64,000 nucleotides of DNA from a virus (IMGVR_UViG_3300015214_000024:391148-455147), one strand, 5' to 3'; numbered from the stretch's first letter, positions 1-64,000 are shown. Translations and numbers: made by a program. Notes: generated by a model from the letters alone, not told the origin.

Positions 1-312
1 ACCAGCAACTAAATTAGTAACGGTATATTCAACAGTAACTCTTTTAGATGTTATGTCACCGCCTTTGGTAAAATAATCCCAAGTGCCGGCAGTTTCATTC
101 CAAGTGTAAACGACACTCGTTTCAACCACAAAAACTGCCATACCATCATCCAATCGGTCAACAGGTATGAGTGCCAAATCGTCATAAGTAGGCACGCCGC
201 GCCAGCCGCCTTTGCCATATTTGGCGTGATGAGTAGGAAATATGTCCGCATCTGTAAATGGTACGATAGCGGATGCAACGTTAGTACCTAAAATTGGTGT
301 AGGATCTGCCAT
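1..312 (-). CDS. Virion/fibre-associated protein, partial (runs off the left edge; not in the ORF track)
   Basis: Manual translation from ATG at 312: MADPTPILGTNVASAIVPFTDADIFPTHHAKYGKGGWRGV..., open to position 1; starts 4 nt after the stop of 316..1380. Confidence 0.75.
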   Translation of the reverse strand, partial: MADPTPILGTNVASAIVPFTDADIFPTHHAKYGKGGWRGVPTYDDLALIPVDRLDDGMAVFVVETSVVYTWNETAGTWDYFTKGGDITSKRVTVEYTVTNLVAG

Positions 313-315
313 ATG

Positions 316-1380
316 TTATGCCCAATGTACCTGTATGTTTGCGCCAGTTTGAATATTGTTAATTCTAATCAAGTTATACTGTGAAGCATAACCAGAAGCA
401 TTTGTAAAATTAATCACGGTGGTGGTAAAGTCACTGAATGCAAGGCCGCCAACAGTAACAGCATTCAATGTGCCGAAAGAAGCCGGATAGGCATAATAAA
501 CATATCTACCACCAGTAGCATTATAAGTAACATCTTTGACTTTTGATGTTGAAAATTCAGAACTTAAAGCGATGATTTCCGAATCAGTCAAAGTAGTATT
601 CGGAGAGACACCCCAATATCTTTTATTTCTAAATTGCAAAGATGCCGTTGATGTTGCTGTATTTCCAGCATTTGCTGTACCATCAGAAACTGTTAATGTC
701 CAAGAACGGTCCGAGCTAAATGGACCGTTGACTGTCGCAGTAGTATCAGACGGGGTGAGCGGGGTTCCGGTATAGTTTGTCATAGCCAATGTTGCGGCTG
801 TCTTGTTCAACGACCAATTCAATGTGACAGACCCAACACTTGAACCAATTTCCACCAAATTTGGCGAGGCTGAGAATGAAGTGATCGCCATCGGCTTGTA
901 AAGCAATGCTGCCATTTGAGCCTCCAAAATATCTAAACGTGCTTTATAATTTGCCAGGCCAGCAGGAGTAACTGCTACGTCATCTCTGACAGCAGCATCA
1001 CATTCTTCCAAGGTGGCCTTAGGCACATCAATAGTCTTGTCAGCAGGTCCGTTATCAGTGACATATGCAAGACCAGTGCCAGTAATGGTAATAGATGGTG
1101 TGATCGCTGATGATAAATCATTAATGGAGGTCAAATATGTTTGACCTTGATCAGCCAACATTAACGTGGTATTACCATTTAAATTAGCTGTCGGGAATGT
1201 TGTTAAATTAAAAACATACTTACCCAATACATAATCACCAACAGATTCCGAAGTTATACTAACAGGTAGTTTTTCAGTAGCATTGTTAGCAGCTGGTAAT
1301 AATTCATCACCAAGCAGTTCGTCCAAACGAGGCATTTGGACAATGTTAGTCAATTCTAATGTTTGATCAGGTAATGCCAT
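316..1380 (-). CDS. Putative virion structural protein (Thr/Ser-rich beta domains)
   Basis: 354 aa, beta-rich; C-terminal YWG...YVYYAYP segment of a kind seen in phage fibre accessory proteins; TAATG coupling to the upstream gene. Confidence 0.6.
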   Translation of the reverse strand: MALPDQTLELTNIVQMPRLDELLGDELLPAANNATEKLPVSITSESVGDYVLGKYVFNLTTFPTANLNGNTTLMLADQGQTYLTSINDLSSAITPSITITGTGLAYVTDNGPADKTIDVPKATLEECDAAVRDDVAVTPAGLANYKARLDILEAQMAALLYKPMAITSFSASPNLVEIGSSVGSVTLNWSLNKTAATLAMTNYTGTPLTPSDTTATVNGPFSSDRSWTLTVSDGTANAGNTATSTASLQFRNKRYWGVSPNTTLTDSEIIALSSEFSTSKVKDVTYNATGGRYVYYAYPASFGTLNAVTVGGLAFSDFTTTVINFTNASGYASQYNLIRINNIQTGANIQVHWA

Positions 1381-4300
1381 TAAATTTTAATCCCGTTTCC
1401 GTCAATAAGAACAATGAACTGTTTGATTCGTAACAAATTAGCACCAACAGATAATGTGAAGCCACGGTCTTTGTAGTTTCCCCATTTATCATATGCTCTA
1501 ACTGTAAAGAATGTTGTTGATCCTTCCGGTCCAGCAACACCAGTAATAATTCCTGTACTACTATTTAGCGTAAAGCCTGGTGGCAAACTACCAAAAACTA
1601 ATTCATATGAAACAATTTGATCAACTAAATGATGCTTTGTTCTCAATTGGATTGTTACTGGTTTTTCTGTAGTAATATATCCCAATTCTCCAGGAGGAGT
1701 AATCCAAATTGGAGGATTAGCTGACCAGAATTCTTTAGTAAGCCCATTATAGAAAACTTCCTGATAATCTGGAGCCCATTTGAGTTGAAAAACTTGACCA
1801 TTAGTTAATTTGCCAATATAGCGATCAAATAATAATTCTTTACCAACAAAAGTTAAACCGTCAGCTTGAATATTTTGTTTCTCATCTAAAATTAGGCTAT
1901 AATCAAAGTGAACCAATTGTCCGTCAAAAGTAGTTTCTATATTCGATTGTGGCAAAAATCCAAGTTCTTCACAAGGGGCGCCAGTAATGTTCGATAAAGT
2001 GATGAAATTGCTTGCATAATTAAAACGCAAGGCATAGCCATAAGTTGGCGTGAATTCTGTACCAATATAGCTATATTGAACTGACTGTTCTAAATACACT
2101 CGTATTTCATTATTACCAGCAGCAGATAATGCCTGTTCAATATCGTTTTTAGCAGTGAAAACGTCACTACCAGTAAATGTTACTAAAACACCGCCAACAG
2201 ACATTTGCGATCCGACAGTAACTATTGGATCTACTTTATCAGCCAATAGCACGTGGCGATCAAAAGTAGTTTCCTGAATATTGAAACTAGTTTGGTTGAT
2301 GATTTGAGTAAAGTTTTGTACAATAGTTTGTGCTTTTCCTGGCTGGACATATGCAAGAACTATTGCTGGAACATAACCTAAAGTTTTTCCTGTGTCATCC
2401 TGTGGCAATCTCATCCAAGCTGGTAGGAATTCATCATTTTCAAGCTGCTTGACCTCTTGGCGGATATTATCAAATGAATGACTGTAATATTGAATACCAT
2501 CCTGTGTTGGAATATTATAATCGGTACCATCCTGTGGATCAAGCAATGGAATATAAATTACTTCATACTCTACGTTGCCATAATTGTCTCTACCAACAGC
2601 ATATGTTGGTATTCCCATCAAACTGCTAAATTTCTTATGATGGTTGGATAATATATTTTGTATTTGATTTTTATCATCAGTATGAATATTATTTGTGACC
2701 AATACATCATATTGTGATGCCCTGCCAAATGTTGGACTATCTGCCTTATATAAGACGCTGTCAGGAATTAAATCATCAGTATTCCAAGCTTCTAACATAT
2801 GAACAAGTTCTACACTTAGCGGAACATAAAGGTCACAAGCAACACCAGTATATGCCGGCGTAGGAACAAATTTAATTACGAAATTTCTTGGTACAACATC
2901 AGATCCATCCATAGCTTCAACAATAAAACCAAGTTCTTGTGTTGAATAAACTTCACCAACATATCCTGTTAATAAACCATCACTTGATACACTTAAACCA
3001 TATGGCAATGAACTATTGTATGATAAGCGATATGTTAATGGCAATGGCCCGTCATCAGGATCAATCGCCTGGAACTGGAAATTAACATATTGGCCCGGAT
3101 GATACTCGATTGGATTTGAACCATCAGTCAATTGCCCAGATGGCGTAATCCAAATTGGTGCTAAATTAGTAGTATTGACGACCTTAACAGTAAATTGTTG
3201 ATCAGAAAAAGCTAGATTAAAATCAGTTGCTCGAATAGTAAATTGATAGACGGTTTCACTATCAGTACCATTACTCGGTACGCCAGATAGTTGCCCAGTT
3301 GCTCCATTAAACAACATTCCCGTTGGTAAGAATCCGCTAACAAAAGAATAAGTAACCACGGATCCTTCAGGATCATTAGCAACAAAGTATAAAGTAGTTG
3401 GCTCACCAGAAACAATATTACCAAGGTTTGAACTAGTTATCCATACTGGAGGTTGATTTACTGTCGCACTGCTCACAAATATATTAAAAGATCTTTCAAC
3501 TGTAAAAACACCATCAGTAACACTTGCAGTAAAATCATACCCAGTGTCTTGTGATATTAAGCCAATAGTGCCAGTTATCGAACCATTAATTTGATCCAAC
3601 ACCAAGCCGGGTGGTAATGAACCAGATACTATTTGATAAGACAGTGAATCTCCTTCTGGATCGTGCGCAATTAATGATGTGGAATAAATTTGGCCATTGA
3701 TACCAGACGGTAACGGTCCTTCCTGAGTCAACCATATTGGTGGTGAATTTGGATTCAAAGCACCGTCAGATATTGTTAATGTAAATTCTTGTTCAGACTC
3801 TAATCCAGCACCAGGATTTGACAATATATCAGATACTGTAATGTGGAACGTTACTAAAGTGTCCTCGTCAACCGATCCAAGTGTACCACGCAAATAACTG
3901 TCTTGAATATACAAACCAGATGGCAAATCTACTGACGAGTATGTTAAAAGATCACCATCTTCATCATCAGCATTTAGTAAAATATTAACATACGATCCTT
4001 CAGGAAAGATTCCAAGATCTGCGTCATTCAGCCAAACAGGTGCAACATTAATTTTATTGGTCAAAATTGAAAAAGTAGAAGGAACAAGCTTATATCCATT
4101 ACTTGCATATACGGTAAAGACATAAAGTTTATCAATATTATCTAAAATCGTACCAGTAATAGTACCATCAGTATTCAATGTTAATCCATTTGGGAACTCG
4201 CCAGAAGCAAAAAAGTAATTTAGAGTAAGATTTATCGTATCGTGTGCCAGCAAAGTTAATGCTACATCATCATTTTGATAATAAGAGCCCAAATTCCCAG

Positions 4301-6776: not shown

Positions 6777-6796
6777 TAACCAAATCTAGTTCTGGT

Positions 6797-6804
6797 TATT
6801 TATT
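6797..6804 (-). promoter_or_regulatory. T4-like late promoter (AATAAATA)
   Basis: ATAAATA core just upstream of a structural gene; the same motif recurs before at least 10 other genes. Confidence 0.6.
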
Positions 6805-6825: not shown

Positions 6826-7119
6826 TTAGCGTTTTTTGCGCTTAGTTGATGACTGATCATTCTTATCATAGTAGGATGGTGGCTTATTTTTAACCCATTT
6901 GATAAATTTTTCCATAGCTGGATGTGATCTGATCAATTCAGGAGTATTGAAGAATTTTGCTAATTGGTAATTGTCAATAGTAGAATGGATCTTAGTATGA
7001 CAAAATCTATGAATTTCAATCGTGCCAGATTTTGCACCACCTTTTTGCTTTGGTATTAAGTGGTGCAAATCGCTAGTACCCGGTTCAATTTCCCTATCAC
7101 ATATAGGACATAGCTTCAT
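6826..7119 (-). CDS. Small HNH-family endonuclease
   Basis: CPIC...DLHHLIPKQKGG...HRFCHTKIH. Confidence 0.8.
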   Translation of the reverse strand: MKLCPICDREIEPGTSDLHHLIPKQKGGAKSGTIEIHRFCHTKIHSTIDNYQLAKFFNTPELIRSHPAMEKFIKWVKNKPPSYYDKNDQSSTKRKKR

Positions 7120-7738: not shown

Positions 7739-7744
7739 TTTTGA

Positions 7745-12412: not shown

Positions 12413-14359
12413 ATGGCTCAAGAAATTAGAAATAGAAGAGGTGATTTAGTAATTTCAATTCCTGATGGAGTTGTGCTGATGCCATCTGACCCAACCGTAT
12501 CATCGGACGGACCAACACTACCGAATACTAATACTAGCCTCTTCCAAGTAGGGCGCGATGTTCTTGACTATGGTTTAGAAATTTCAGAAAACCTCCACTG
12601 GATAATGGAAAATTTTGCCAATTCAGTACCGCCACAAAATCCAGTAGATGGTCAACTCTGGTGGGATATTTCAAGTGCTGCATCACCAGTGATGAAAGTG
12701 TACAATACAGGTACTGGTGGTTGGGGCGCTGTTGTGAAACTTTCAAGCGATCCTAATCCAAGCCTTTCAGCAAATTTAAATGCCGCTGGTAGAAAAATTA
12801 TCAACTTAGGAGCACCAGTTTCTGCCGCCGATGCAGCAACAAAACAATATGTCGATTCTGCAATAGGAGCAATATCTGGCGGTGTAAATTCATTTCTCTC
12901 CCTATCCGACACTCCGTCAACATATTCAGGCCAAGCTGGTAAAGTTACAAGAGTAAATGCAGCAAATACTGGTTTGGAATTTTATAAATTAAAATTTACC
13001 GACCTGGATGGTGTATCTTCAAGCTTTGCTGGACAAAATAGCAAATATTTGCGAGTCAATACTTCTGGAACTGCCATAGAATACGTTACACCAAGTATTA
13101 CTCATATTGATTGGTCAGGTGCTGTCAATGTAAATGCCCAAGGAGTTAAAATTAGCAATATTGCTACTCCTACCGCAGGACAAGATGCTGCAACCAAAAG
13201 TTATGTTGATTCTGCTCTTTCATCAGCAACTGGTGGAATCTTACCACCAGGAAATGGGATTGTAGTAAGAACTAATTCAGGCTCGGTCAACAGGAATATC
13301 ACTGCTGGAAATAACGGAATTGTAATCCAAAACGGTGATGGCGTTGCAGGAAACATTACAATATCACACGGGGCAGCCACAGGAAATGGATCAGTAAATT
13401 CTGGTGGTACAGTAATACAATCAATTACTTTAGACCCATACGGGCACATAAGCACTATCGGAACTACATCAATTACTGGTGGGTTAGGCTACATTCCAGT
13501 CAATAAAGCCGGTGATACAATGTCAGGCAATTTAAATGTGTCTGGTGGTGGACATATCACTTTGAGTACTAATGGTGACATCACTGCCCATCGTGGCAAT
13601 AATACCGGCGTAATATTCTTAGGCAATGCTGGAAACCGATACTTGTATTTCGACGGCAGTAATTATCAAATGCCATCGAGCAATTTGTACGTCAATGGCG
13701 GTCTAGCTTGGACTTCAGTCAACCAAGGATCTGGAACTGGAATGAACTCAGACTTGTTAGACGGATATGATTGGACTTCAGGCCAATTCGTTAGCTTCGG
13801 ACAGGGAAGATTCCTAACACCAAATTCGGGAACTACTGGAGGTATCCAATTAAGAGCAAATCCTTCACACGGTAATGCTATTTTACAATTTGTCAATGCG
13901 GATGTAAATCAACAATATGGCTTCTTATCAGTCAATTCTAATGGTAGATTGATTTATAATAATGGTACAGTTTGGCATTCCTTGTTGCAAGGTCCAGGCA
14001 CTGGAATGAATGCGGATTTGCTTGATGGGTATCATTATTCGGATATTATTGCCAATGCTGCGGCCGCTGGTGGTGGTATTATTGCAGGCAGTTTGGGAGC
14101 AAATGGCTGGGTTAGATTTGGATTTAGTAATTTTATGATCCAATGGGGCTATTATAATGCTACAAGTGGCGGATATAAAAACATATATTTCCCGACTTCT
14201 TTTCCAACGGCTTGCAGAAGTGTTACGTTGGGTAGTGAAATGCAAGCAAATAACGACTCTACTGACGATGTCGCGGGCGTAAGCTCAGTAACACAATCAT
14301 ACTTCCAAGCAAGAACTAGAGGAAGTTTACATTTCTATTGGATGGCTATAGGATACTAA
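12413..14359 (+). CDS. Tail fibre / receptor-binding protein
   Basis: N-terminal YG..ISENL..IMENFA...P.NPVDGQLWWD anchor shared with 14801; DAATK.YVD repeats; C-terminal IQWG...FPTSFPTAC...WMAIGY tip. Confidence 0.85.
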   Translation: MAQEIRNRRGDLVISIPDGVVLMPSDPTVSSDGPTLPNTNTSLFQVGRDVLDYGLEISENLHWIMENFANSVPPQNPVDGQLWWDISSAASPVMKVYNTGTGGWGAVVKLSSDPNPSLSANLNAAGRKIINLGAPVSAADAATKQYVDSAIGAISGGVNSFLSLSDTPSTYSGQAGKVTRVNAANTGLEFYKLKFTDLDGVSSSFAGQNSKYLRVNTSGTAIEYVTPSITHIDWSGAVNVNAQGVKISNIATPTAGQDAATKSYVDSALSSATGGILPPGNGIVVRTNSGSVNRNITAGNNGIVIQNGDGVAGNITISHGAATGNGSVNSGGTVIQSITLDPYGHISTIGTTSITGGLGYIPVNKAGDTMSGNLNVSGGGHITLSTNGDITAHRGNNTGVIFLGNAGNRYLYFDGSNYQMPSSNLYVNGGLAWTSVNQGSGTGMNSDLLDGYDWTSGQFVSFGQGRFLTPNSGTTGGIQLRANPSHGNAILQFVNADVNQQYGFLSVNSNGRLIYNNGTVWHSLLQGPGTGMNADLLDGYHYSDIIANAAAAGGGIIAGSLGANGWVRFGFSNFMIQWGYYNATSGGYKNIYFPTSFPTACRSVTLGSEMQANNDSTDDVAGVSSVTQSYFQARTRGSLHFYWMAIGY

Positions 14360-17820: not shown

Positions 17821-18417
17821 TTAAAATCTATCTAAAATTTTTCTTAGATCGCCTTCAATTAAATTTGACTTATTATTTGGATCAATGGTAACTGGACCAT
17901 CCCAATTCAAGTATGGAATCCACGACTCGTGTGCAACAGTGATTGGGTTCTTTCTCGCATTACTTGCAAGTTCCCAATATGACGGTCTCCACGGCTGTTT
18001 CATTGGCTTGATCTTAGTGCTATCACCCTTTGCTTGATTGCAAGGCAAACACGCGCTTGAGATGTTTTCCCAATTCGTCTTACCACCTAAGCTACGTGGA
18101 GTTACGTGCTCAAATGTCAGTTCAACTGGTCGAAACTTATTACCACAGTATTGGCAGACATAATTGTCCCTTAAGAAGATATTTTCCTTAGAAAATTCAA
18201 TCTTACCGCTATGCTGCTGGAATTCCTTCAACATAATGATTGACGGCATTCTCAATTGAACAGATGGTGATCGAATAACCCAAGTATCATAGGATTCAAC
18301 AACGACTGCGCGATCTAGGTAAATCACACGAATAGCTTCTTTCCAATGTGTTGTGCTCAACGGAATAACACTAACTGGGTTACCATCGGCATTTAGAACT
18401 AAAGTCGCATCTGACAT
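17821..18417 (-). CDS. HNH endonuclease-family protein
   Basis: LVLNADG.P.S; IFLRD...CQYCG...LTFEHV.PRS.GG...WEN....C..CN..KG. Confidence 0.9.
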   Translation of the reverse strand: MSDATLVLNADGNPVSVIPLSTTHWKEAIRVIYLDRAVVVESYDTWVIRSPSVQLRMPSIIMLKEFQQHSGKIEFSKENIFLRDNYVCQYCGNKFRPVELTFEHVTPRSLGGKTNWENISSACLPCNQAKGDSTKIKPMKQPWRPSYWELASNARKNPITVAHESWIPYLNWDGPVTIDPNNKSNLIEGDLRKILDRF

Positions 18418-21203: not shown

Positions 21204-22049
21204 TTATGCCAATCCGGCGTAGAGGTGTTGCTGAAGATTGTACGTTAGACCATTATTTACACAATAATTGGCAGTATATTCGTGATTGATCTGATTGGAC
21301 TTCATATCCAACAACCCTTCTTCCCAAAAGGAAATAACTTCATCAACATTTGATCGTTCACCAATCTTGATATTATCAGTAGAATATTCCTCATCAAATT
21401 TACGAGGAAATTTATTATAGATATTCATCGGGCTTACGAAAATCTGCCTACCAGTTTTATCTCTCCACTCAAAAGCCCATTCTGGTATTGAAGAATATGG
21501 CGAATCTTTATCAGCAGACATAACAAATTTTAAACAATTAGCTCGTTCTAATGTTTCAGCCCTTGGCGTTAAGTATCTAACTGGGGCACCACTCTTTTCA
21601 AGACATTTTGGGCTCACTACCAAGCAAGTCTCTTCTGGGATTTCTGTGAAAACCGTACCATTACTTTCAATTTGAGAATATCTAAATTCCTTATTTACAG
21701 CATCAAGTAATTGCTTAATGTTCTTCTGCAACATTGGTTCGCCGCCAGAAAGCACAAATACTGCTTCTTTCTTTTCACCAGCCATATAAGGAGGAACAAA
21801 ACCACCAAAGTGATCTACAATTGCAGAATTTACTTCTTTCATCAATTCATCAACAGTAAACCAATCACCATTATCAAAATAAGTATCACAAAAGCTACAA
21901 GCAAGATTGCACTTAGCAAGTCTGACGAAAAAAGCAGGATATCCACGATATGGCCCCTCGCCTTGTAATGTCATAAATCGACTTACCACCATCAAATCGT
22001 CTCGGCCATTGAAGAACTTCTGACCAACTATGGAATTTTTACCGAACAC
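21204..22049 (-). CDS. queE: 7-carboxy-7-deazaguanine synthase (radical SAM)
   Basis: F.TLQGEG...G.PAFFVRL..CNLACSFCDT; SGGEP.LQ; IESNG; VSPK; C-terminal Q.H. Confidence 0.93.
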   Translation of the reverse strand: MFGKNSIVGQKFFNGRDDLMVVSRFMTLQGEGPYRGYPAFFVRLAKCNLACSFCDTYFDNGDWFTVDELMKEVNSAIVDHFGGFVPPYMAGEKKEAVFVLSGGEPMLQKNIKQLLDAVNKEFRYSQIESNGTVFTEIPEETCLVVSPKCLEKSGAPVRYLTPRAETLERANCLKFVMSADKDSPYSSIPEWAFEWRDKTGRQIFVSPMNIYNKFPRKFDEEYSTDNIKIGERSNVDEVISFWEEGLLDMKSNQINHEYTANYCVNNGLTYNLQQHLYAGLA

Positions 22050-23636: not shown

Positions 23637-23933
23637 TTATTTCACCATTGCCATAGCTGTTTCAATTGTTGCCCATAGTTCTTTTATCTGCGGATCAGTG
23701 CTTGCTTGAATAAATTTTTCAGTATGTTCGCGCAGGCCACTGAGAACGTGGGCCATACCACACGCTATCCAAAACAACTCCGTTTTTGCATCAGCAATTT
23801 GAGTCGCCTTTTCAAGCAAATAATCTTCGATTCTTTCGCCAGTATTGATATCACGTTCTAATGCAAGATTGTCATATGTAACACTATCCAATCGATCTAT
23901 TAATTTATCAAGCTCTTTCTGATATTCGTCCAC
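23637..23933 (-). CDS. Hypothetical helical protein (paralogue of the previous ORF)
   Basis: C-terminus DPQIKELWATIETAMAM; GTG start overlaps the PRTase stop. Confidence 0.7.
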   Translation of the reverse strand: MDEYQKELDKLIDRLDSVTYDNLALERDINTGERIEDYLLEKATQIADAKTELFWIACGMAHVLSGLREHTEKFIQASTDPQIKELWATIETAMAMVK

Positions 23934-24391
23934 TATTCTTTTTCCCACGGATAAACAAGCCAAATTGGATCAATTGCCTTGTTTATCTCAACTGCATAAA
24001 AATCTGGTTTGAACAATGTTTCACCACTGTTAAAATGGAGACAAACAGACGTAGCGGTTAATAAAAATCGAGCCGACTGATCAGCTAAAGCATCGTATAT
24101 TTGATGCAAAGTTTCACCACTATCACATATATCATCTACAAAAAGCACTCTCTTTTTATAAATTGCTTTTGCGACATCTATCGGAAGTTCTTCCGGAGGC
24201 TGGCCATCACGAGTTTGCCAATTTAAACAAACTAAAGGAAGTCCTAAATGATGACTGAGTTCAACAGCAGGTACTAGGCCGCCGCGGGCGATCCCGACGA
24301 CTACATCATAGTCGTCGGAATTAAGCATTGACTCCAGTTTAGTAATATCCTGGCCAAAATCTGACCAAGAGTAGTAAACTTTTGTTGTCAC
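23933..24391 (-). CDS. Type I phosphoribosyltransferase (Gpt/xanthine-guanine PRT-like)
   Basis: VGIARGGLVPA..LSH; VLFVDDICDSGETL PRPP loop; C-terminal W.VYPWE. Confidence 0.9.
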   Translation of the reverse strand: MTTKVYYSWSDFGQDITKLESMLNSDDYDVVVGIARGGLVPAVELSHHLGLPLVCLNWQTRDGQPPEELPIDVAKAIYKKRVLFVDDICDSGETLHQIYDALADQSARFLLTATSVCLHFNSGETLFKPDFYAVEINKAIDPIWLVYPWEKE

Positions 24392-25101
24392 GAGTTATAA
24401 CCTTTCATACCAGCCAAAAGCTTGTAGAATTCATCCTTAAGGGCCGCGTCGTCACGGAATTTACCACGCATAATAGCAGTAGTCATATCTGACTCGTGTT
24501 CACGGACACCACGATGTGTCATACAGTGATGTTCTGCCTTCAAAACAACAGCAACGTTTGGCGTTTCAGCAAACTTTTCCAATTCGTCAGCAATTTGAGT
24601 AGTCATTTCTTCTTGAATCTGTGGACGTTCAGCAATCCAATGAACCAATCGATTAAACTTGGATAGTCCAATAACCTTTTCTTCAGGGAAGATTCCTACC
24701 CAACAACGTCCAACAATATTCTGGAAATGGTGTGCGCAAGTGCTGCGAATACTAATTGGTCCAGCAGTATAAACATTCTCATATCCAATGTTTGGAAATG
24801 CTGTAATCTTTGGTGCTGGAACATATCTACCACCAAATGTTTCACGCAAGAACATTTTAGCAACTCTGCGAGCAGTATCTTGGGTATTGTGATCGTTTTC
24901 TGTGTCAATAACCAAAGTTTCCAAAACTTCTTGGAATTTTGCAGTTAGTTCATCTTGAAGAAGATCCATTTCACCAGTATTGATATACTCTGAAATGTTT
25001 TTATTTGAAACAAACTCGCCGCCTGCTTCAACAATACGTTGTCTAATCTGTTTGGAAATTGGGAGTGGGGTTGATCCGCAGCAATCGTTATTATTTGTCA
25101 T
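24388..25101 (-). CDS. folE: GTP cyclohydrolase I
   Basis: TARRVAKM, STCAHHF, VIGLSK..R, RPQIQE.MT, AEHHCM..RGV. Confidence 0.97.
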   Translation of the reverse strand: MTNNNDCCGSTPLPISKQIRQRIVEAGGEFVSNKNISEYINTGEMDLLQDELTAKFQEVLETLVIDTENDHNTQDTARRVAKMFLRETFGGRYVPAPKITAFPNIGYENVYTAGPISIRSTCAHHFQNIVGRCWVGIFPEEKVIGLSKFNRLVHWIAERPQIQEEMTTQIADELEKFAETPNVAVVLKAEHHCMTHRGVREHESDMTTAIMRGKFRDDAALKDEFYKLLAGMKGYNS

Positions 25102-26314: not shown

Positions 26315-26725
26315 TTATTTTCCTTGTATGACTGGTTGGAAGAAAAGGGTTGCGCCGTTTTCTCCGTCTTCCGAAACCGTAATGTTAAATGCCCGGTTTG
26401 GGTATTTTTGTGAAATTTCACCCGCAAGGTCCTCTGCAATCATTTCGCAGCTTTTATAATCAAGCTGCAAAGTTTCCATTGAATACAAACGCTCCAACCA
26501 GCGCTTGAATTGTATAAATTCAATATCCCGGTCGTTATGCACGACATCAATTTCCACCCTAAAGTGGAAAATATGACGATGAGGAACTCCTAAAAAGCTT
26601 ACATCGTCCCAATCACCAGTTGCCAATTTTGGGTCAGTATCTGCACCTGGATACTTGTGAATACCTTCCTTCTGGAAGGTAACAAATATTGTTCTTTTTG
26701 TAACTATCACGCTATTATCCTTCAT
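26315..26725 (-). CDS. QueD-like T-fold protein with LxxxHRHxF (DpdL-like)
   Basis: EGIH.YP...FLGVPHRHIFHF.V...H.DRDIEF...SCEMIA...VSEDGENGA; lacks the canonical QueD CxxxHGH; start ATG 26725. Confidence 0.75.
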   Translation of the reverse strand: MKDNSVIVTKRTIFVTFQKEGIHKYPGADTDPKLATGDWDDVSFLGVPHRHIFHFRVEIDVVHNDRDIEFIQFKRWLERLYSMETLQLDYKSCEMIAEDLAGEISQKYPNRAFNITVSEDGENGATLFFQPVIQGK

Positions 26726-54634: not shown

Positions 54635-54817
54635 ATGGAACACTGGCTAGCGGTAACACTCCTTTGGGGTGGTGGAACACTTATTGTACTTTGCTTACTC
54701 AAACTATTGTTTAGTTTGATGTCAAATCCTTTTGACGACCTTGATGATGAAGACTTGAAGGAAATCGATGAGGCAGGTAAAAATCTAACTGACCTAGGCG
54801 GTAAAATTAACTTTTAA
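54635..54817 (+). CDS. Small single-TM protein
   Basis: Hydrophobic N-terminus, acidic tail; GAGG SD. Confidence 0.6.
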   Translation: MEHWLAVTLLWGGGTLIVLCLLKLLFSLMSNPFDDLDDEDLKEIDEAGKNLTDLGGKINF

Positions 54818-55149
54818 AATAAAATAAGTCGGTCAATGAAATCAGCCAACCGTTCAATTGTTGACGAATGTTGATCATACGCATAATATTCAATAACAAA
54901 CTGTTTCCTATTATCTCCCGGATAGGTAAATTTCTCACCCACAATTTGTTGTCCTAAATTTGGTTCACCCACTGCATAGATAATATCTTCCATTCGATAA
55001 TAACTATATCCTTCATCCACTATCTGAATGTTTTCAAAAGCATATTCAGGCGGCCACAATGCCTCAATAATTAAAGGCATTGCAACCTTAAGTGCATCTA
55101 TGTGGCTAGGGACGAATTTTCCCTGATAGATAATTTTTAATATAATCAT
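54814..55149 (-). CDS. Hypothetical protein
   Basis: 111 aa; ATGA overlap with the upstream gene. Confidence 0.6.
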   Translation of the reverse strand: MIILKIIYQGKFVPSHIDALKVAMPLIIEALWPPEYAFENIQIVDEGYSYYRMEDIIYAVGEPNLGQQIVGEKFTYPGDNRKQFVIEYYAYDQHSSTIERLADFIDRLILF

Positions 55150-55427
55150 TTGACAAGGCTGTAATAAGTTTCAAAAGCTTCCGGAATTTGAATATTATTC
55201 AGTTCAAGACGGTGCTTGAGTTCATCCATGCCAACCATATTGACCACATTCAGCCAATTGGAATAAGTTTCCTCTTCCGTGGCACATTCAAGATTCCACA
55301 GCTTTACCAACATCTCATTAAAAACTTCTTCGCCTTTCAGGGTTACTTGGCGAGCGACATAAAATGCCTGCAGGATTTCAGGATGTCGTTTGTTTATGTC
55401 GTCCCAATTTAAATCAATAGAGGCCAT
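55146..55427 (-). CDS. Hypothetical protein
   Basis: 93 aa; GGAG SD. Confidence 0.65.
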   Translation of the reverse strand: MASIDLNWDDINKRHPEILQAFYVARQVTLKGEEVFNEMLVKLWNLECATEEETYSNWLNVVNMVGMDELKHRLELNNIQIPEAFETYYSLVK

Positions 55428-56440: not shown

Positions 56441-57438
56441 TAGTTTTTCATTATCCTATAACCTAATATTTTAGTATAATGTTTCAAGATCCAGTTGGGA
56501 ATGGAGCAGAAGGTACACCAAACAGACCATCAGTAGTGTATCTTGCTATTCCTTTGGTCACTCTGAATTCGTCAATACGACCAGTAAACCCTCCAGATGT
56601 TGAATTTCTACAGAACAATCTAAACGGTTGGGCTGAGGACGACATCGTACCAGGAACGGCCGCTGATGATTTGCCAACCATTTCACCGTTTAAATAAATT
56701 CTAATGAAATCCGCCGAATCACGGGTAATGGCCCAGAATTGCCAAGTGTCATATCCCGCAGATGCTCGATTCTTATTGGTTAAAACAGTAGTCCTGGATG
56801 GTGCACCTGTCATATAGCAATTAAATTTAAAATAAGTATCTAAACCAAATCCAAATCCCTCAGAGCCAGTCCAACTCGTTAATTTATTAAAAAACCCGCC
56901 AGTGGACGCGAAACCGCTATTCACATAATACGCCCAAAATTCGAAAGTAAACTCGCCGTCAAATAACCAATCTGAACTAGATGCAGTAGTTATACTCACA
57001 TATTGAGTGGTGGAAGTGGTATTGATATATCCACCGAATGGTGAACTTACCGGTCCGCTGACCTGAATAGTGGGTGATGTAGAAGAAGCAGTAATAGAAG
57101 AAACGTTACCCTTCACATCAGCAGCAGTGTCAGTAACTGAGGATGCATCATCCCATCTTAGCAACATAATAACATTATCCCAGTAAGGATCACCTGACGA
57201 TAAATTTGCAACCTGTGCAGTAAGGGTAGATCCAGCAAATCCCACTTGAATGGCCATACATATAATTCTCCTTTCATTCTTCAAATTTTACTCAATACTA
57301 AAGAATATTTATAGTCTGGCCAGGTGTTATTTTATCAATCCGGCTTTCTCACACAGGCACTTCATCTGTTGTTTTTGTCATTAGAACCTGGGTGTGATAT
57401 TTTTCTCTAACTTCTATTAATTTTTCATTATCCTATAA
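56439..57438. mobile_element. About 1-kb inserted cassette bounded by a 23-bp direct repeat (56439-56461 and 57416-57438)
   Basis: ATTARTTTTTCATTATCCTATAA at both ends; contains the LamG gene and its own TATAAATA (57306-57313). Confidence 0.7.
56484..57257 (-). CDS. LamG/concanavalin-A-like lectin-domain protein
   Basis: GDPYW.NV..L..D, FTFEFW, YLNG, G.IDEFRVTKGIARY, VPSAPFPT; start ATG 57257 after AGGAG. Confidence 0.85.
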   Translation of the reverse strand: MAIQVGFAGSTLTAQVANLSSGDPYWDNVIMLLRWDDASSVTDTAADVKGNVSSITASSTSPTIQVSGPVSSPFGGYINTTSTTQYVSITTASSSDWLFDGEFTFEFWAYYVNSGFASTGGFFNKLTSWTGSEGFGFGLDTYFKFNCYMTGAPSRTTVLTNKNRASAGYDTWQFWAITRDSADFIRIYLNGEMVGKSSAAVPGTMSSSAQPFRLFCRNSTSGGFTGRIDEFRVTKGIARYTTDGLFGVPSAPFPTGS

Positions 57439-59351: not shown

Positions 59352-59629
59352 GACACTATCCTACAAGCATTCCGCTGCCACTCAGGCATAAAGGTGATCC
59401 AAAATAGCATCTCTTCCGCATACTTGGGAGTATCGTGACTCATAAGAATATAGGTTGAAATTTGATCCTCTTCGGACAATTTATTATAAAGTCCACGAAG
59501 CGAATCTTCATAATTGGCATTCAGGACTTCATATACACGAATCCATTCAGTAACTTCCTTCCGACCCGTAACCATTTTCTTACGGATTTCCAATCGTTCC
59601 TTCAGTGTATCAATTATGTCAAGATTCAA
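59348..59629 (-). CDS. Paralogue family A protein
   Basis: YNKLSEEDQI...MPEWQRNACRIV; TTG start after GGAG; TTGACA-17-TATAAA upstream. Confidence 0.75.
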   Translation of the reverse strand: MNLDIIDTLKERLEIRKKMVTGRKEVTEWIRVYEVLNANYEDSLRGLYNKLSEEDQISTYILMSHDTPKYAEEMLFWITFMPEWQRNACRIVS

Positions 59630-59693
59630 TGTTAGACTCCAGGTGCAAATTTATTGGGATTTATAAATTATACCAAGGGAAATGTCAAGGGCC

Positions 59694-60005
59694 TTATTCA
59701 CTATAAAGCACCAATTGGTCCTGAATTATGATTATGGCAGCAGCTTGATCTGTGGTCAAATATGGCAATAAGACTTCCTGAGCTGAACACTTAGTATAGA
59801 ATGTAATTTGATCTTCTGGTGAAAGGTTTTCCCATATATGGACGATTCTACTCTGACGTTCCCATATAAGGTGTTTGACTTTATCATCATATTTCTTTTT
59901 TGTAATAACACCATTATGATATTCCTTATAGGCGCGATCGCACTTTTCATAATGATCTTCATATATGTACTTTACCGTGGTGGCAAATAATCGTTCTATG
60001 TCCAT
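59694..60005 (-). CDS. Paralogue family A protein
   Basis: WENLSPEDQITFY.KC...IIIIQDQLVLY. Confidence 0.75.
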   Translation of the reverse strand: MDIERLFATTVKYIYEDHYEKCDRAYKEYHNGVITKKKYDDKVKHLIWERQSRIVHIWENLSPEDQITFYTKCSAQEVLLPYLTTDQAAAIIIIQDQLVLYSE

Positions 60006-60261
60006 TATATACTTTTCCCGAAATCAATAGGGCATAAAAGAAATTTTTCGGTCTGATCGAAAAGCCCCGTGAAGTTAAGCATAATGGAGGGTTTTTTGTC
60101 GAGTAAGAAAGATACCGAAATCAATGGGTCTGAAAAGAAAACTGGTAGCCAGATGTCGGCCCCCCTTTATACTTTAGTCAACCCTGAAATTCACTACACG
60201 CACCACTTTTTTTTCGAAAAATATTTTTTTTCTTTTCGGTTGACTTATCTTTTTCAATCAG

Positions 60262-60339
60262 TTAGGAGAAAAGATTCAGGACGCCGACGAAGAACATCAC
60301 GGCGTGTTCGGGATAGAGAAAACTGAGCTTGATCTGCAC
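60262..60339 (-). CDS. Putative 25-aa peptide (not in the ORF track)
   Basis: TTGACT-16-TATAAC promoter, GAGGAG SD, GTG start; MQIKLSFLYPEHAVMFFVGVLNLFS. Confidence 0.45.
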   Translation of the reverse strand: MQIKLSFLYPEHAVMFFVGVLNLFS

Positions 60340-60412
60340 GTCTGTAACTCCTCTGTATGTGTCTGTTATATAGGATCCTGTCCTATAGTCAAGAGCTTTT
60401 ATTGTATTGACT

Positions 60413-60583
60413 CTATGCAGGAAAGGCCACTAGAGTCTCTACTCCCTGATAGCCCCTCTGCCAAAAGACTTGACGGGCCTTGGCTCGGGCTTCATCACCA
60501 TCACGGGCCTTGACTTTGGTCGTATTGGTGACCGTCTTATTGCGCTTGGTGAGCATACGGCAGGTAACAGTGAAGAGGATCAT
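60413..60583 (-). CDS. Small basic early-type protein (56 aa; not in the ORF track)
   Basis: TTGACT-16-TATGAT promoter, AAGGAG SD; MILFTVTCRMLTKRNKTV... Confidence 0.7.
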   Translation of the reverse strand: MILFTVTCRMLTKRNKTVTNTTKVKARDGDEARAKARQVFWQRGYQGVETLVAFPA

Positions 60584-60794
60584 TGTCTGTCTCCTTATGT
60601 GACCATCATATAGGAGAAAGATTATTAGTCAAGAGCCTTTTTGCTATAGACATTTGTTTGGGTCTACCATATAAGGAGTTATCAAGAGGAGATAGTCCAA
60701 TGCATTAGGCGATAGGCTCAGCATAGACAGGAACCATATAGTAAGAGAAAACATTAGGCTGTTGACATATAGGAGGCTACAGTGTAACAGTTAG

Positions 60795-61040
60795 GGCGTC
60801 GGGTCAGGAAGCCAGGACCCACATATTAGAGAGATGTATAGTTAGAGAAGACTATCAATACTGAGTTCAGGTTGGTGTTTGTAGTCGGGATTGGAAGGGT
60901 GGAGTCCGAAAGGATGTTGAAGCCCTCCTTTCTTTTATTCAGGCCTGTTAACTATCTTTGTTTACACTAATGAGTAATGTTAATGCCAATAGTTAACCAT
61001 TTCAGTCATAGGAATAGGCCGGGTTGACTACCGACCTTTT
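60795..61040 (+). ncRNA. Candidate structured ncRNA 1 with a kink-turn-like element
   Basis: No ORF; TTGACA at 60762; stems GGGTC/GACCC, ATAGT/ACTAT, GTAGTC/GACTAC, GGCCTGTT/AATAGGCC; GTGGAG-tcc-GAAA-gga-TGTTGAAGC at 60899-60923. Confidence 0.5.
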
Positions 61041-61045
61041 CTCCA

Positions 61046-61192
61046 TTATCCAATAATGATTTCGCCTTGGCTGTAATAGACTTCCTGAATGTCGTCAGTG
61101 TCGCCATATTCCGGGTCAACTATAGCCACATCCTGGTCGCCGTGTTGGTCGATCATTTGTTCCAGACGTGCGATCAGTTCGCTTGCCTTCAC
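61046..61192 (-). CDS. Small hypothetical protein (48 aa)
   Basis: GTG 61192 after AAGGAGG; MKASELIARLEQMIDQHGD. Confidence 0.7.
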   Translation of the reverse strand: MKASELIARLEQMIDQHGDQDVAIVDPEYGDTDDIQEVYYSQGEIIIG

Positions 61193-61202
61193 GTTTGCCT
61201 CC

Positions 61203-61439
61203 TTAGTATTCGAATCGAACACCGGCATTGACACCACGCCATTTGTCGTGGACTGGCCGGACATTCATCGCGCCCAGTGCTGCCAGTTCCTGCTGGAGTC
61301 GACCGAGATCGTAAGGCTTGTATTGCCCGTAAATCTTGTATGTGCGGCCGTGGACGATGCGCTGGGTGTAAAGCTTGTAGCAGTTGAGCCCCAGGTTATT
61401 GAGGGCTTGACGAGCGAGGATCGAACCGGGAAGTGCCAT
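61203..61439 (-). CDS. Small hypothetical early-type protein
   Basis: AGGAG SD; own promoter. Confidence 0.7.
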   Translation of the reverse strand: MALPGSILARQALNNLGLNCYKLYTQRIVHGRTYKIYGQYKPYDLGRLQQELAALGAMNVRPVHDKWRGVNAGVRFEY

Positions 61440-61456
61440 TACCTATCTCCTGTGTA

Positions 61457-61492
61457 TGTCAGTCGTATAGTGTATATTGGCCGACAATGCAA
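61457..61492 (-). promoter_or_regulatory. Early promoter (TTGCAT-17-TATACG) with an imperfect inverted repeat and 14-nt loop
   Basis: Plus strand: TGTCAGTC-14 nt-GGCCGACA. Confidence 0.55.
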
Positions 61493-61501
61493 GAGGTTTT
61501 T

Positions 61502-62167
61502 TCAGTAAGTTATCAGTTGACTCCTGAACTTCAGGCCATCATTGGTATATGTCCTGGGCAGTAGAGGATTTGGTGTGTTCAGTATATCGTCGATTTCGAT
61601 CGGCACGAATGATATCCGGACGAATGTCCTCTGAGTTCCTGTCGTGCTCGACGGGCGGCGATGTAGGATATAGGGGTCCATACAGTAGACAGTTTCGTCA
61701 TCTGCCTTCTGGACTTCTTCGACGAACTGTTCCAGATAATGGTTAATGTTGTGGACCCTGGGGTCGAAATCGTCTGGGAATGTCACATTCAGGTCGGCGA
61801 ATTCGGTCGCATCCGTGTTGGCCCAAATGTAATTCTGTTCGGGGTTGTGAGGTGTCTTGGTAGAGAAACCATCAACGTGCCATTCGTCGTCTCTCTTGCT
61901 CTTCACAATGCCGTGGCGAACGGTCACGTAACAGTAGGGATGATTGGCATTGATCGCCTTCTGATGCTCTTGGGCGAGCTTTATCAACGGCATTACCCAG
62001 TCGAGTTCGTCTGGGATTTGATAATCACCTGCTGACCGGATGACCATCCTGAGAATATATTGTTCATCAGTTGGTGGCGTGAGGTCAAGTCGACCAAGAC
62101 TCAAAGGACCGCCAGCTGTCTGGAAATCCTTCAAGTTAACCAATCTATGTGCCCGCTGGTCGAGCAT
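61502..62167 (-). CDS. Putative 2-oxoglutarate/Fe(II) oxygenase-fold protein
   Basis: WHVDG (HxD) ... ILHR ... RTFVRISF. Confidence 0.65.
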   Translation of the reverse strand: MLDQRAHRLVNLKDFQTAGGPLSLGRLDLTPPTDEQYILRMVIRSAGDYQIPDELDWVMPLIKLAQEHQKAINANHPYCYVTVRHGIVKSKRDDEWHVDGFSTKTPHNPEQNYIWANTDATEFADLNVTFPDDFDPRVHNINHYLEQFVEEVQKADDETVYCMDPYILHRRPSSTTGTQRTFVRISFVPIEIDDILNTPNPLLPRTYTNDGLKFRSQLITY

Positions 62168-62496
62168 TAGATCTCCTCAAACCCTAAGGGCATAACGAGC
62201 ATCTTTTTCGTGCCATTGACGACCACAATGTCGCCGACGCTCGTGCTGGTGTGTGCCGTATTGGGGATGGCCAAGCATTCGATACCAGCAGGCGGATAAC
62301 CGTTGCCACAATCGAAGGCAACGTCGAGATCGTCGCTCTGGATAACGTAGGCGGGCTGATAGTAGCCATCCAGCATTAGCCGGTTGAACATTTCCTGGCG
62401 CTCGGGCTGGCTGATGCGATTGGGCATCATTACGTTGATGGCGTCCTCGCCCTGAAGTTCCCGGCTGGTGTAGTGGAAGATGACCATCGAACCCAT
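62167..62496 (-). CDS. Hypothetical early-type protein
   Basis: DLD.AF...N...S.SVGDIVVV.G....V...GF; AAGGAG SD. Confidence 0.75.
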   Translation of the reverse strand: MGSMVIFHYTSRELQGEDAINVMMPNRISQPERQEMFNRLMLDGYYQPAYVIQSDDLDVAFDCGNGYPPAGIECLAIPNTAHTSTSVGDIVVVNGTKKMLVMPLGFEEI

Positions 62497-62516
62497 CGTG
62501 TGTCTCCTTGTGTTGT

Positions 62517-62551
62517 GCCACCCTTATATGGAAAATGGTGGCCACTGTCAA
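62517..62551 (-). promoter_or_regulatory. Early promoter (TTGACA-17-TATAAG) with inverted repeat and 14-nt loop
   Basis: GCCACC-14 nt-GGTGGC. Confidence 0.7.
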
Positions 62552-62560
62552 TGGAAAAAA

Positions 62561-62734
62561 TCAGTCTGGGTTGTATTCCCACCCGTATTTGATACGGTGT
62601 TCATCCAATTTCCGGGCGGCAGCTTTCCATTCTGGAGTGCGAACTGAACCAGTTTCCATATAGGCTTGGCCGCAAGCATCGTGAAGGGCGTCGCGTTCGT
62701 CTTGGATGTGCTGAGGCTGATCTTCGAAGCGCAT
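62561..62734 (-). CDS. Small hypothetical early-type protein (57 aa; not in the ORF track)
   Basis: AAGGAG SD; MRFEDQPQHIQDERDALHDACGQAY... Confidence 0.7.
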   Translation of the reverse strand: MRFEDQPQHIQDERDALHDACGQAYMETGSVRTPEWKAAARKLDEHRIKYGWEYNPD

Positions 62735-62747
62735 TAACCGTCTCCTT

Positions 62748-62786
62748 GTTACCAGACCCTCTTAGCAGAATCTGGTAACTGGTCAA
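62748..62786 (-). promoter_or_regulatory. Early promoter (TTGACC-16-TAAGAG) with 9-bp inverted repeat and 14-nt loop
   Basis: GTTACCAGA-14 nt-TCTGGTAAC. Confidence 0.7.
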
Positions 62787-62808
62787 GGATTATTTTCGGT
62801 TGACGGAG

Positions 62809-63111
62809 TTATTCTTCTCCGCCAAATCCTTCTTCACCTTCCGGCCATTCCAGCTGGGGCCAGTAGTAGATGCGAGCGCGCATCCCCATATCGTCTTCCC
62901 GGGGAGCATCCAGATCGAAGAGATCCATATTGCCGTTGTTCCGGTCAGCCAGGGCCAGGGCAAGTGTCCAGGCGGTGGTGTATTCCAGCACGACGCCAAT
63001 GCAGCTCTTGCCATACATACCACGGCCGCTGTAGCTGCGGACTTCCAGCTGGATGTTGCCATCTTCGTAGACTTCGCGGAGCAGGTTGAGAAACGATTCG
63101 GAAGTGACCAT
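62809..63111 (-). CDS. Hypothetical early-type protein
   Basis: RSYSGRGMYG.SC.G...DDMG....YYWP; AAGGAG SD. Confidence 0.8.
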   Translation of the reverse strand: MVTSESFLNLLREVYEDGNIQLEVRSYSGRGMYGKSCIGVVLEYTTAWTLALALADRNNGNMDLFDLDAPREDDMGMRARIYYWPQLEWPEGEEGFGGEE

Positions 63112-63124
63112 CTTGTGTCTCCTT

Positions 63125-63163
63125 GTTACCTGACTCTTGTAGCAGAATCAGGTAACTGGTCAA
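63125..63163 (-). promoter_or_regulatory. Early promoter (TTGACC-16-TACAAG) with 9-bp inverted repeat and 14-nt loop
   Basis: GTTACCTGA-14 nt-TCAGGTAAC; compensatory change relative to 62748-62779. Confidence 0.7.
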
Positions 63164-63172
63164 GAGAAATGT

Positions 63173-63559
63173 TTAGTTGACAATCACTTCCAAAGACGCC
63201 GCACTAGTTGCGTCAATGACGCCCTGTTCGATGGCTGCCTCGAGGATGATCTTGTCCATTATCGGATCGACTTTTGCAGCGATGCGATCGAAATGAGTGC
63301 GCTGGTGACGGCCGGAGCCGCTGCGATAGTGAGACATACGAACGCCGAAATGGTATCCAATCTCTGCCGCGCGGTTCATTCCGCCATTGTTGAAGATATC
63401 GTAGTAGGCATTGCCAGCCGTGCGAAGCTTTTCGAGCTTCTTGTTCTTGCTGCGCGAGTGTTGGCACTTGCCTTCGATTGGGATCAAGCCGTTCAGAGCA
63501 TCATAGAGCATCTGGTATTTGCCAGTGCCATCCCAGTAGCTGTTTCCTGATACGAGCAT
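63173..63559 (-). CDS. Hypothetical early-type protein
   Basis: YW...GKYQ...L..LIP..G...YYD.FNNG; AAGGAG SD; TTGACT promoter at 63607-63612. Confidence 0.8.
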   Translation of the reverse strand: MLVSGNSYWDGTGKYQMLYDALNGLIPIEGKCQHSRSKNKKLEKLRTAGNAYYDIFNNGGMNRAAEIGYHFGVRMSHYRSGSGRHQRTHFDRIAAKVDPIMDKIILEAAIEQGVIDATSAASLEVIVN

Positions 63560-63626
63560 CTTGCATCTCCTTCGTTACTCCATCTTTTTAGCAGATCTGG
63601 TCACAGAGTCAATGAGAAAAAAGCAG

Positions 63627-63655
63627 TTGACAGAACATTTTGTTGGGCGTATAAC
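63627..63655 (+). promoter_or_regulatory. Near-consensus sigma70 promoter
   Basis: TTGACA-17 nt-TATAAC with no downstream SD-led ORF. Confidence 0.75.
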
Positions 63656-63661
63656 GGCAGA

Positions 63662-63848
63662 GTTCAAGCAACACCGGGTCAGACGCTTAGCCGAAGCCGG
63701 TGCCAAGTTGGGCATTTTAGTAAGAACTGACTGAGTAGTGGAGCCAGAAATGGTCGATGAAGCGAAAGGCAGTATGGTTTGAGAGCGCCAGGAAGTGAAG
63801 GTTTCGCCCTGCGGATGGTTGCTTGGAAGGGGGCCTTGTGTCCCCTTC
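63662..63848 (+). ncRNA. Candidate structured ncRNA 2 with a kink-turn-like element
   Basis: Closing helix TTCAAGCAAC/GTTGCTTGGA; CACCGG/CCGGTG; GTGGAG-cca-GAAA-tgg-TCGATGAAGC (63738-63763); 3' hairpin GAAGGGG/CCCCTTC. Confidence 0.6.
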
Positions 63849-63974
63849 ACCCATCTTAGCCAACCACTGTTAACTTTACTAATTAACGTTAACACGACTC
63901 TGACCAGACTAATCTTTTTTTGTTGACTCATATCAAAGATATGTTATCAGGAGACAACAGAAGGAGATGTTGAG

Positions 63975-64000
63975 ATGGCCCGCAAGATCGAAACCGCCGC
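63975..64000 (+). CDS. Start of an early-type gene, partial (MARKIETA...)
   Basis: TTGACT promoter at 63923, AAGGAG SD, ATG 63975. Confidence 0.6.

Follow-up and report, generated by a model that had tools for sequence, protein, structure and literature searches.

The tetranucleotide CATG is almost completely missing from the DNA of an uncultured giant phage, represented in IMG/VR by the single 455,147-bp virus contig IMGVR_UViG_3300015214_000024, which is rated complete and will be referred to here as G000. The window under analysis, by which we mean the whole 64,000-nucleotide stretch at the end of this contig (bases 391148-455147; positions below are those of the window unless given as genome positions), contains only one CATG, at 55227-55230, compared to 220 expected under an order-2 Markov model, 348 under an order-1 model, and 223 based on base composition. 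In the genome as a whole, 30 CATG were found where about 1,550 would be expected (observed/expected ratio, O/E, of 0.019 under the order-2 model), so that approximately 98% of these words are gone. A preliminary description of the window, obtained by reading the sequence by eye, had proposed a near-total avoidance of CATG, with roughly 200 sites expected and a single one noticed; exact counting bears out all of these points and extends the avoidance to the whole genome, although the GC (guanine plus cytosine) content of the window is 38.7% rather than the estimated 37%. Other words listed there as common are indeed so in the window, with observed and expected counts of 290 and 278 for GATC, 120 and 139 for GGCC, 141 and 180 for GTAC, 234 and 246 for AGCT, and 173 and 229 for GANTC. 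The 15 palindromic tetranucleotides other than CATG have O/E values between 0.57 and 1.15 in the window and between 0.62 and 1.09 genome-wide, where the second-lowest 4-mer is CTAG (0.62). CATG is therefore unlike any other palindromic 4-mer under the Markov models used here. Words that differ from it by a single terminal base are all common in the window (CATA, 472; CATC, 494; CATT, 575; AATG, 416; GATG, 260; TATG, 241), which shows that only the full word is missing.

To separate the effect of the word from that of codon and amino acid usage, synonymous codons were shuffled within each of the 632 open reading frames (ORFs) called, which cover 89% of the genome. Coding sequences contain 22 CATG, compared to 890±23 in the shuffled versions (ratio 0.025; z = -37), and the deficit affects all three codon phases, with 9 sites observed against 243 expected, 2 against 229, and 11 against 418, respectively. 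Intergenic DNA is equally affected, with 6 sites where 118 would be expected, and a C directly precedes only 11 of 2,977 internal ATG and 2 of 414 start ATG. As the depletion extends to every codon phase, to intergenic DNA, and to start contexts, selection acts on the DNA word itself, in double-stranded form. Within genes, the loss of CATG is achieved by silent changes. Before a G, in fact, histidine is encoded by CAC 609 times and by CAT only 9 times genome-wide, as had been suspected from a few histidine codons in the window, whereas CAT is preferred when the next base is A, C, or T. As the only silent escape in phase 0 is a T to C change (CAT to CAC), a bias toward deamination of C cannot explain this loss.

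Selection still removes CATG, as seen by comparison with a close relative. This relative, L280, is a locus on a Logan contig of 120,934 bp (run SRR10342220) that was found through the DNA methylase discussed below; it is syntenic with G000, and the flanking proteins are 88-98% identical. Over 19,365 aligned columns (about 19.4 kb), the two sequences share 77.6% nucleotide identity and differ by 4,330 substitutions, and yet L280 contains no CATG at all, compared to 72 expected. When the same 4,330 substitutions were placed at random, 44±6 CATG were created, and never fewer than 29 in 300 trials. GATC, on the contrary, turns over freely between the two (33 sites shared, 47 present only in the relative, and 48 only in G000), and so do AGCT, TGCA, ACGT, and TCGA. 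The absence of CATG in L280, where random placement would have generated dozens of sites, indicates that selection against this word has been continuous in both lineages. Together with the depletion in all codon phases and in intergenic DNA, this comparison supports the proposal of the preliminary description that the word is under strong selection by a CATG-directed DNA-cutting activity.

CATG is not the only word to have been purged from this genome. Genome-wide, GTATAC is absent where 87 sites would be expected, and very low counts (observed/expected) were also obtained for GGAGCT/AGCTCC (5/117), ACGCGT (2/41), GCTAGC (3/55), GTGCAC (4/43), CGTACG (3/31), and AGTACT (15/85), so that seven 6-bp words are depleted by 80-100% and at least eight words, including CATG, are purged overall. 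Furthermore, CTGCAGT was found once where 41 copies would be expected, with CTGCAG overall at 30/73. The same purge is visible in the window for GTATAC (0/16), GGAGCT (0/13), ACGCGT (0/5), CGTACG (0/4), CTGCAGT (0/8), and AGTACT, of which two copies (13565-13570 and 28401) are present compared to 18 expected. A general avoidance of alternating purine-pyrimidine hexamers was also considered and rejected, as the median O/E of this class is 0.93 compared to 1.00, and alternating words such as CATATG, TACGTA, ATGCAT, and GCGCGC occur at normal frequency in the genome. The purge is thus on or off, word by word, which is the pattern that sequence-specific enzymes would produce.

Several genes identify G000 as a giant T4-like phage, namely those for Portal_T4 (gp20), the Gp23 capsid protein, gp25, and gp46/47-like proteins, and the genome also carries 69 tRNAs. 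Among cultured phages, the capsid of Sinorhizobium phage Phosso (469 kb) comes closest, with 69.5% identity, followed by those of the GAP32/BF/CBB group (about 350 kb), with Phosso and this group spanning 64-70% identity, while uncultured relatives of 453-543 kb reach 72-74%. These uncultured giant phages share about 145 of the 632 G000 proteins at approximately 39% identity, and Phosso, which has many tRNAs and a small histidyl-tRNA synthetase as G000 does, matches about 143 of them at approximately 37%; no near-identical DNA was found in cultured phages. With regard to the host, the isoleucyl-tRNA synthetase (IleRS) of G000 is 36-38% identical to its best matches, which are from Alphaproteobacteria, and this similarity, along with the Sinorhizobium host of Phosso, provides weak hints of an alphaproteobacterial host. 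The cyanophage marker psbA is absent from G000, and the region searched with ARAGORN and Rfam yielded no transfer-messenger RNA.

Each of the relatives examined lacks its own set of words, and these sets overlap. In the 453-kb relative G004, GTATAC (1/72) and GTGCAC (17/104) are purged and CATG is at its normal frequency (O/E 1.08), and in the 519-kb relative G005 the purged words are ACGCGT (0/57), AGCGCT (0/65), ACGCGC (0/87), and GGAGCT (2/63), with CATG at 0.83. GGAGCT, it should be said, is an asymmetric word, and it is shared with the purged set of G000. Phosso has few AGCGCT (1/111), TGTACA (4/98), GCATGC (7/111), and ACGCGT (11/100), with a CATG O/E of 0.86. A partial purge of CATG was seen in G002 (O/E 0.17), from which ACGCGT, AGCGCT, and CGTACG are all absent; the genes common to G000 and G002 only include nothing nuclease-like. 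A separate observation concerns TAAATA/TATTTA, which is rare in G000 (312/560) and among the most depleted words in G005 (TAAATA, 204/488) and G002 (93/222). T4 late promoters carry the word TATAAATA, and this depletion probably reflects the avoidance of stray words of this late-promoter-like type.

To look beyond these few genomes, CATG was scored in 133 informative loci of 5-21 kb around capsid homologues. The median O/E was about 0.75, and only three of these loci were below 0.2, while 14 were below 0.5. The strongly purged loci, L048 (0/35), L136 (0/46), and L068 (7/41), require at least three origins on the capsid tree, and CATG O/E values are 0.67 and 0.40 in the neighbors of L048 and L136, respectively, whose capsids are 91-92% identical to theirs. 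Such scattered origins and unpurged near neighbors indicate that the purge is sporadic and able to evolve fast.

The CATG sites that survive in G000 are strongly clustered, with 9 of the 29 gaps between them measuring 200 bp or less, whereas 20,000 random trials gave 0.4 such gaps on average and never more than 4. Five are located at genome positions 414-764, in an end-of-contig gene and a hairpin-rich spacer; two in a 119-aa ORF at 18.4 kb (genome 18442-18697); five in the head module (genome 124642-130818); four in a region with tRNA and homing endonuclease genes (genome 190685-199507); and six in two genes without Pfam match at 364-368 kb (genome 365174-367993). Several of these sites form pairs spaced by 12-15 bp. 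In the window, the single CATG falls within a 93-aa ORF (55146-55427, minus strand), among a run of small ORFs of unknown function, and two rare copies of other purged words are found close to it (GCTAGC at 54646 and GTGCAC at 56801). Such clusters are probably patches recently imported by recombination, even though other purged words did not co-cluster significantly with the residual CATG sites in a test of low power (P = 0.18-0.43). That 30 sites survive suggests that a single CATG is apparently not lethal, which would fit a partial protection of the phage DNA.

We then asked whether the genome encodes a known CATG nuclease, as the preliminary description had suggested. The answer was negative for enzymes of the NlaIII/IceA type (PF05315), for which hidden Markov model (HMM) searches of G000 returned no candidate even at E<=1, and phmmer searches of the six-frame translation with two true bacterial members of the family returned nothing at E<1. 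PF05315 is also absent from six related virus records, from Phosso, and from all the methylase-bearing and capsid-relative loci. The two HNH proteins of the window that had been put forward as possible CATG cutters do not appear to be better candidates. One is a 198-aa HNH endonuclease (17821-18417, minus strand; Pfam HNH/HNH_5, PHROG 16726) and the other a small 97-aa HNH-like ORF that falls under the Pfam cut-off (6826-7119, minus strand); neither matches NlaIII or IceA, and judging from sequence they look like ordinary small phage HNH proteins. The same applies to all ten HNH proteins of the genome, none of which has an ICEA match. Among bacteria, pairs made of a CATG nuclease and a PF01555 methylase are carried by 4 of 401 genomes of the class closest to the G000 IleRS. 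Two bacterial loci from the class of G007, L276 and L277, encode NlaIII/IceA-type nucleases whose partner PF01555 methylases have 49% mutual identity, and represent a useful reference for CATG systems.

The only DNA methylase of G000 is encoded outside the window, at genome positions 102409-103341. It belongs to PF01555 (E = 2.7e-41) and to the beta class, with a DPPY motif at residues 28-31, and its best relatives in the Protein Data Bank (PDB) are M1.HpyAVI and CcrM; no methylase of the D12 class was found in G000. Close homologues are missing from cultured phages, while metagenomes contain thousands of homologues at about 70% identity. In viral contigs, homologues were recovered by using an alignment as query, a single-protein query having returned none (a single-protein scan of the same contigs for a 489-aa head gene also found nothing). 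Among the viral contigs carrying a homologue with at least 60% identity, the CATG O/E was below 0.2 in 9 of 35 and below 0.5 in 19 of 35, which compares to 3 and 14, respectively, of the 133 capsid relatives. Directly upstream of the methylase gene, and overlapping it by 4 bp, lies a gene for a 404-aa protein that we call X (genome 103338-104552, minus strand; L006:3338-4552). X belongs to an orphan family of 122 representative clusters, with members of 400-550 aa, and in roughly 30 of 37 loci the methylase has a member of this family beside it; three distant X homologues, however, have no neighboring methylase. With the exception of L280, no further gene is common to G000 and the loci with both genes in the 10 kb on either side, which suggests that X and the methylase move together as a mobile cassette.

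The presence of X coincides with a stronger loss of CATG. The median CATG O/E was about 0.3 in viral loci other than G000 with X plus methylase (n = 27), 0.64 in those with the methylase alone (n = 7), and 0.76 in capsid-relative loci (n = 140); in Mann-Whitney tests uncorrected for kinship, the cassette loci differed from the methylase-alone loci with p = 0.017 and from the capsid relatives with p = 4e-7. Among palindromic 4-mers, CATG ranked first in depletion in 15 of the 27 loci with the cassette, compared to 24 of 155 capsid-relative loci, and CATG-depleted lineages occur in at least eight clades of the methylase tree. On the other hand, L283, L317, L290, and L306 have intact X and methylase genes and normal CATG levels. 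Inactivation of X in the lineages with normal CATG was considered and discarded, as the invariant residues of the protein are intact in depleted and normal lineages alike.

E167, D194, and K205 are invariant in 56 members of the X family, with D194 and S203-x-K205 placed on a predicted beta-hairpin, an arrangement which, in the predicted model, resembles a PD-(D/E)XK motif, and the best nuclease match, a weak structural one, was to I-Ssp6803I, a homing endonuclease of the PD-(D/E)XK type (Z 4.9, rmsd 3.4, 79 aligned residues). Foldseek and VIA-align, run with the whole model and with its core domain, did not yield any fold match above chance, and the 56-member family corresponds to no Pfam family and, when used as a profile, to no PDB sequence. 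X is only 39% identical between G000 and L280, in spite of the 88-98% identity of the neighboring proteins. In G000, the cassette follows the genes for gp47 and gp46 on the same strand; in T4, gp46 and gp47 complete the breakdown of host DNA after endonucleases have cut it. The G000 methylase, lastly, shares just 26% identity with the partner methylases of genuine NlaIII-type nucleases. A different arrangement was observed in L281/L282 (ENA contig k141_997067, 129 kb), where the methylase is 69% identical to that of G000 and a convergent 426-aa gene of unknown function replaces X; this contig is CATG-depleted (8/60) and contains Rpb6-like, Cpn60/Cpn10, and Hc1-like genes as well.

The preliminary description had also assumed that the DNA of this phage carries a guanine modification, and this idea stands only in part. 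The window does contain genes of a partial 7-deazaguanine precursor pathway, namely a QueE-like radical-SAM protein (21204-22049, minus strand; PHROG 2076) and a FolE-like GTP cyclohydrolase (24388-25101, minus strand; PHROG 2197), the latter adjoined by a phosphoribosyltransferase gene (23933-24391). The 682-aa protein that had been called TGT-like (26715-28763, minus strand), however, has no TGT or DpdA signal by sequence: it gave no TGT match in Pfam, PHROGs, or PDB sequences, its best PDB match is a weak sialyltransferase stretch (E = 0.0012), and PF01702 (TGT/DpdA) was not found anywhere in the genome at E<=0.01. A gene of the 5-hydroxymethyldeoxyuridine (5-hmdU) DNA kinase family (PF18723, HMUDK_hel; E = 7e-36), at genome 107717-108580 on the minus strand, suggests a hypermodification of thymidine. 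NlaIII and FatI only partly digest phage DNA with thymidine modifications derived from 5-hmdU (PMC6449724). In L280, which is equally CATG-free, the position of the kinase gene is occupied by three small ORFs with weak Gp23-like matches.

In our judgment, it is close to certain that an enzyme acts on every CATG in this phage. The explanation we favor, with a probability of about 0.5, is restriction-site avoidance driven by a CATG cutter encoded by the host, a host system being also the default explanation for a purged palindrome. In such a scenario, a CATG-specific endonuclease able to cut each CATG would make every site costly in terms of fitness, and about 1,500 sites would have been replaced silently (CAT to CAC before G; NNC to NNT before ATG), with new ones still being removed. 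The likeliest agent would be an NlaIII- or FatI-like orthodox Type II system, and each related giant phage would bear the imprint of the restriction enzymes of its own host population. That at least eight restriction-type words are purged, and that relatives lack different sets of them, favors the host. The 30 survivors would be recent imports, each of small cost and not lethal, that are tolerated through partial protection by methylation or base modification. We infer here that the agent is a nuclease, that it belongs to the host, and that protection is partial, and some considerations weigh against this interpretation. An efficient Type II enzyme would still cut the 30 residual sites, unless these are partially protected as we suppose, and the contigs that carry the methylase family of G000 have lost more CATG than phages lacking it. 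A protective methylase alone predicts less avoidance, and phages with protective modification were in fact reported to avoid 2.4% of host sites, compared to 55.8% for relatives without it (PMC6286503); the stronger depletion in methylase-bearing contigs fits a phage-borne nuclease at least as well. Alternatively, then, the cutter might be the phage's own, a possibility that we regard as appreciable but clearly less probable than a host enzyme. The cassette would work as a CATG restriction-modification-like (R-M-like) module, with X cutting unmethylated CATG in host or competitor DNA, and the phage's own DNA, which replicates too fast to ever be fully methylated, would shed the word as a result. 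Among the five giant phages compared (G000, G002, G004, G005, and Phosso), in fact, both the cassette and the 98% purge are found in G000 only; X adds to CATG depletion beyond the methylase alone, as reflected by the medians reported above, and depleted lineages recur across the methylase tree. The mobility of the pair, its location after gp47 and gp46, the divergence of X amid conserved neighbors, which is typical of R-M nucleases, and its invariant residues with the weak match to I-Ssp6803I all point in the same direction. Calling X a nuclease, however, is a guess, given that it has no Pfam family, PDB sequence match, or significant fold match; its distant homologues lacking an adjacent methylase, the four loci with an intact cassette and normal CATG, and the low identity of the methylase to the partners of NlaIII-type nucleases also argue against such a role. 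The association could moreover come from hosts in common, or from the acquisition of a protective methylase in response to CATG pressure from the host, and restriction by hosts has left its mark on this genome in any case, as the seven other purged words show. Even more tentative, and in our opinion rather unlikely, is the broader proposal that the hypervariable X and the beta-class adenine methylase form a mobile, phage-borne CATG R-M-like module with a new kind of nuclease, spreading among uncultured aquatic T4-like phages, used against the DNA of hosts or rivals, and making its carriers, G000 above all, shed CATG. A host enzyme and the cassette could both have a part if hosts with CATG systems selected initially for phages that had acquired a CATG methylase cassette, and subsequently for site loss.

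Two other explanations carry less weight than either a host enzyme or the cassette. The cutter could reside on mobile elements that compete with the phage, for example prophages or co-infecting phages with orphan NlaIII-type nucleases, and the loss of CATG would then be the outcome of a conflict between phages. The sporadic occurrence of this loss in several unrelated aquatic phage lineages would be compatible with such a conflict, but no such element was tied to G000, and the other purged hexamers look like ordinary targets of host R-M systems. We consider this scenario improbable. Lastly, no enzyme at all might be involved, and the pattern could result from mutational bias (deamination of methylated C, for example), DNA structure, translation signals, or an artifact of assembly or library preparation. 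Besides the fact that CATG contains ATG and alternates pyrimidines and purines, nothing specific speaks in favor of these causes, and we give them hardly any credit. The escape used in phase 0 is a T to C change, while deamination of C would alter the amino acid; no mutational bias is known to bring the O/E anywhere near 0.02; the other NATG and CATN words are normal, intergenic DNA is purged, and alternating purine-pyrimidine hexamers are not depleted as a class. An artifact, furthermore, cannot generate a matched choice of codons, and the independent assembly of L280 shows the same loss.

A feature of the genome apart from those discussed so far is a segment of approximately 74 kb that spans the contig ends (from about 60000-64000 of the window on to genome 1-70000) and has a GC content of 0.45-0.52, compared to 0.36-0.39 elsewhere. 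It contains many small genes of unknown function, two RNA ligases, a DUF932 protein, and an AAA_5 ATPase, and with eight sites it is as CATG-poor as the rest. As the contig starts inside a gene, the record is either circularly permuted or cut at an arbitrary place.

Restriction-site avoidance is a known kind of phenomenon, of which G000 is an unusually extreme case. A classic example is Staphylococcus phage K, which has no GATC sites. In the survey by Rusinov et al. (2018, PMC6286503), orthodox Type II sites were nearly completely eliminated in about a tenth of phage genomes, while avoidance of asymmetric sites was rare. As in those phages, the avoidance in G000 concerns a nearly eliminated palindrome with words of like composition remaining normal, proceeds by silent changes, is lineage-specific, and involves several orthodox Type II words together. 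Unlike them, G000 shows it on a larger scale, with a 4-bp word 98% removed (about 1,500 sites in 455 kb) along with at least seven 6-bp words, and departs from the norm in that the asymmetric GGAGCT is also purged. The word missing from G000 is exactly the one recognized by the NlaIII and IceA1-HpyI systems, which combine PF05315 with a methylase, and yet G000 differs from these systems in having no PF05315 gene and a PF01555 methylase with only 26% identity to their partners. With respect to Phosso, the many tRNAs, the small histidyl-tRNA synthetase, and the purge of many 6-bp palindromes are shared, whereas CATG is near normal in that phage. If X and the methylase do form an R-M-like module, G000 would avoid its own target, as R-M carriers do, and aim the nuclease at other DNA, as chloroviruses do. 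Chlorovirus R-M systems cut host DNA, in one case (CviAII) at CATG, and these viruses keep and methylate their own sites; G000, unlike them, loses the sites, and X belongs to an orphan family. The avoidance of their own target by genomes carrying R-M systems was reported by Rusinov et al. (2015, PMC4687349).

The phenomenon is a textbook one, and G000 represents an exceptionally clean and large example of it, in which the loss of about 1,500 sites is accompanied by direct comparative evidence of current selection. What it adds to the known cases is the demonstration that selection is ongoing, the existence of word "barcodes" within a family of giant phages, and the association with a cassette. 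Comparing such barcodes with the R-M repertoires and methylomes of bacteria could point to the hosts of uncultured giant phages, and the association of the cassette with CATG loss could lead to either a phage counter-defense against CATG restriction or a new family of nucleases used as weapons.

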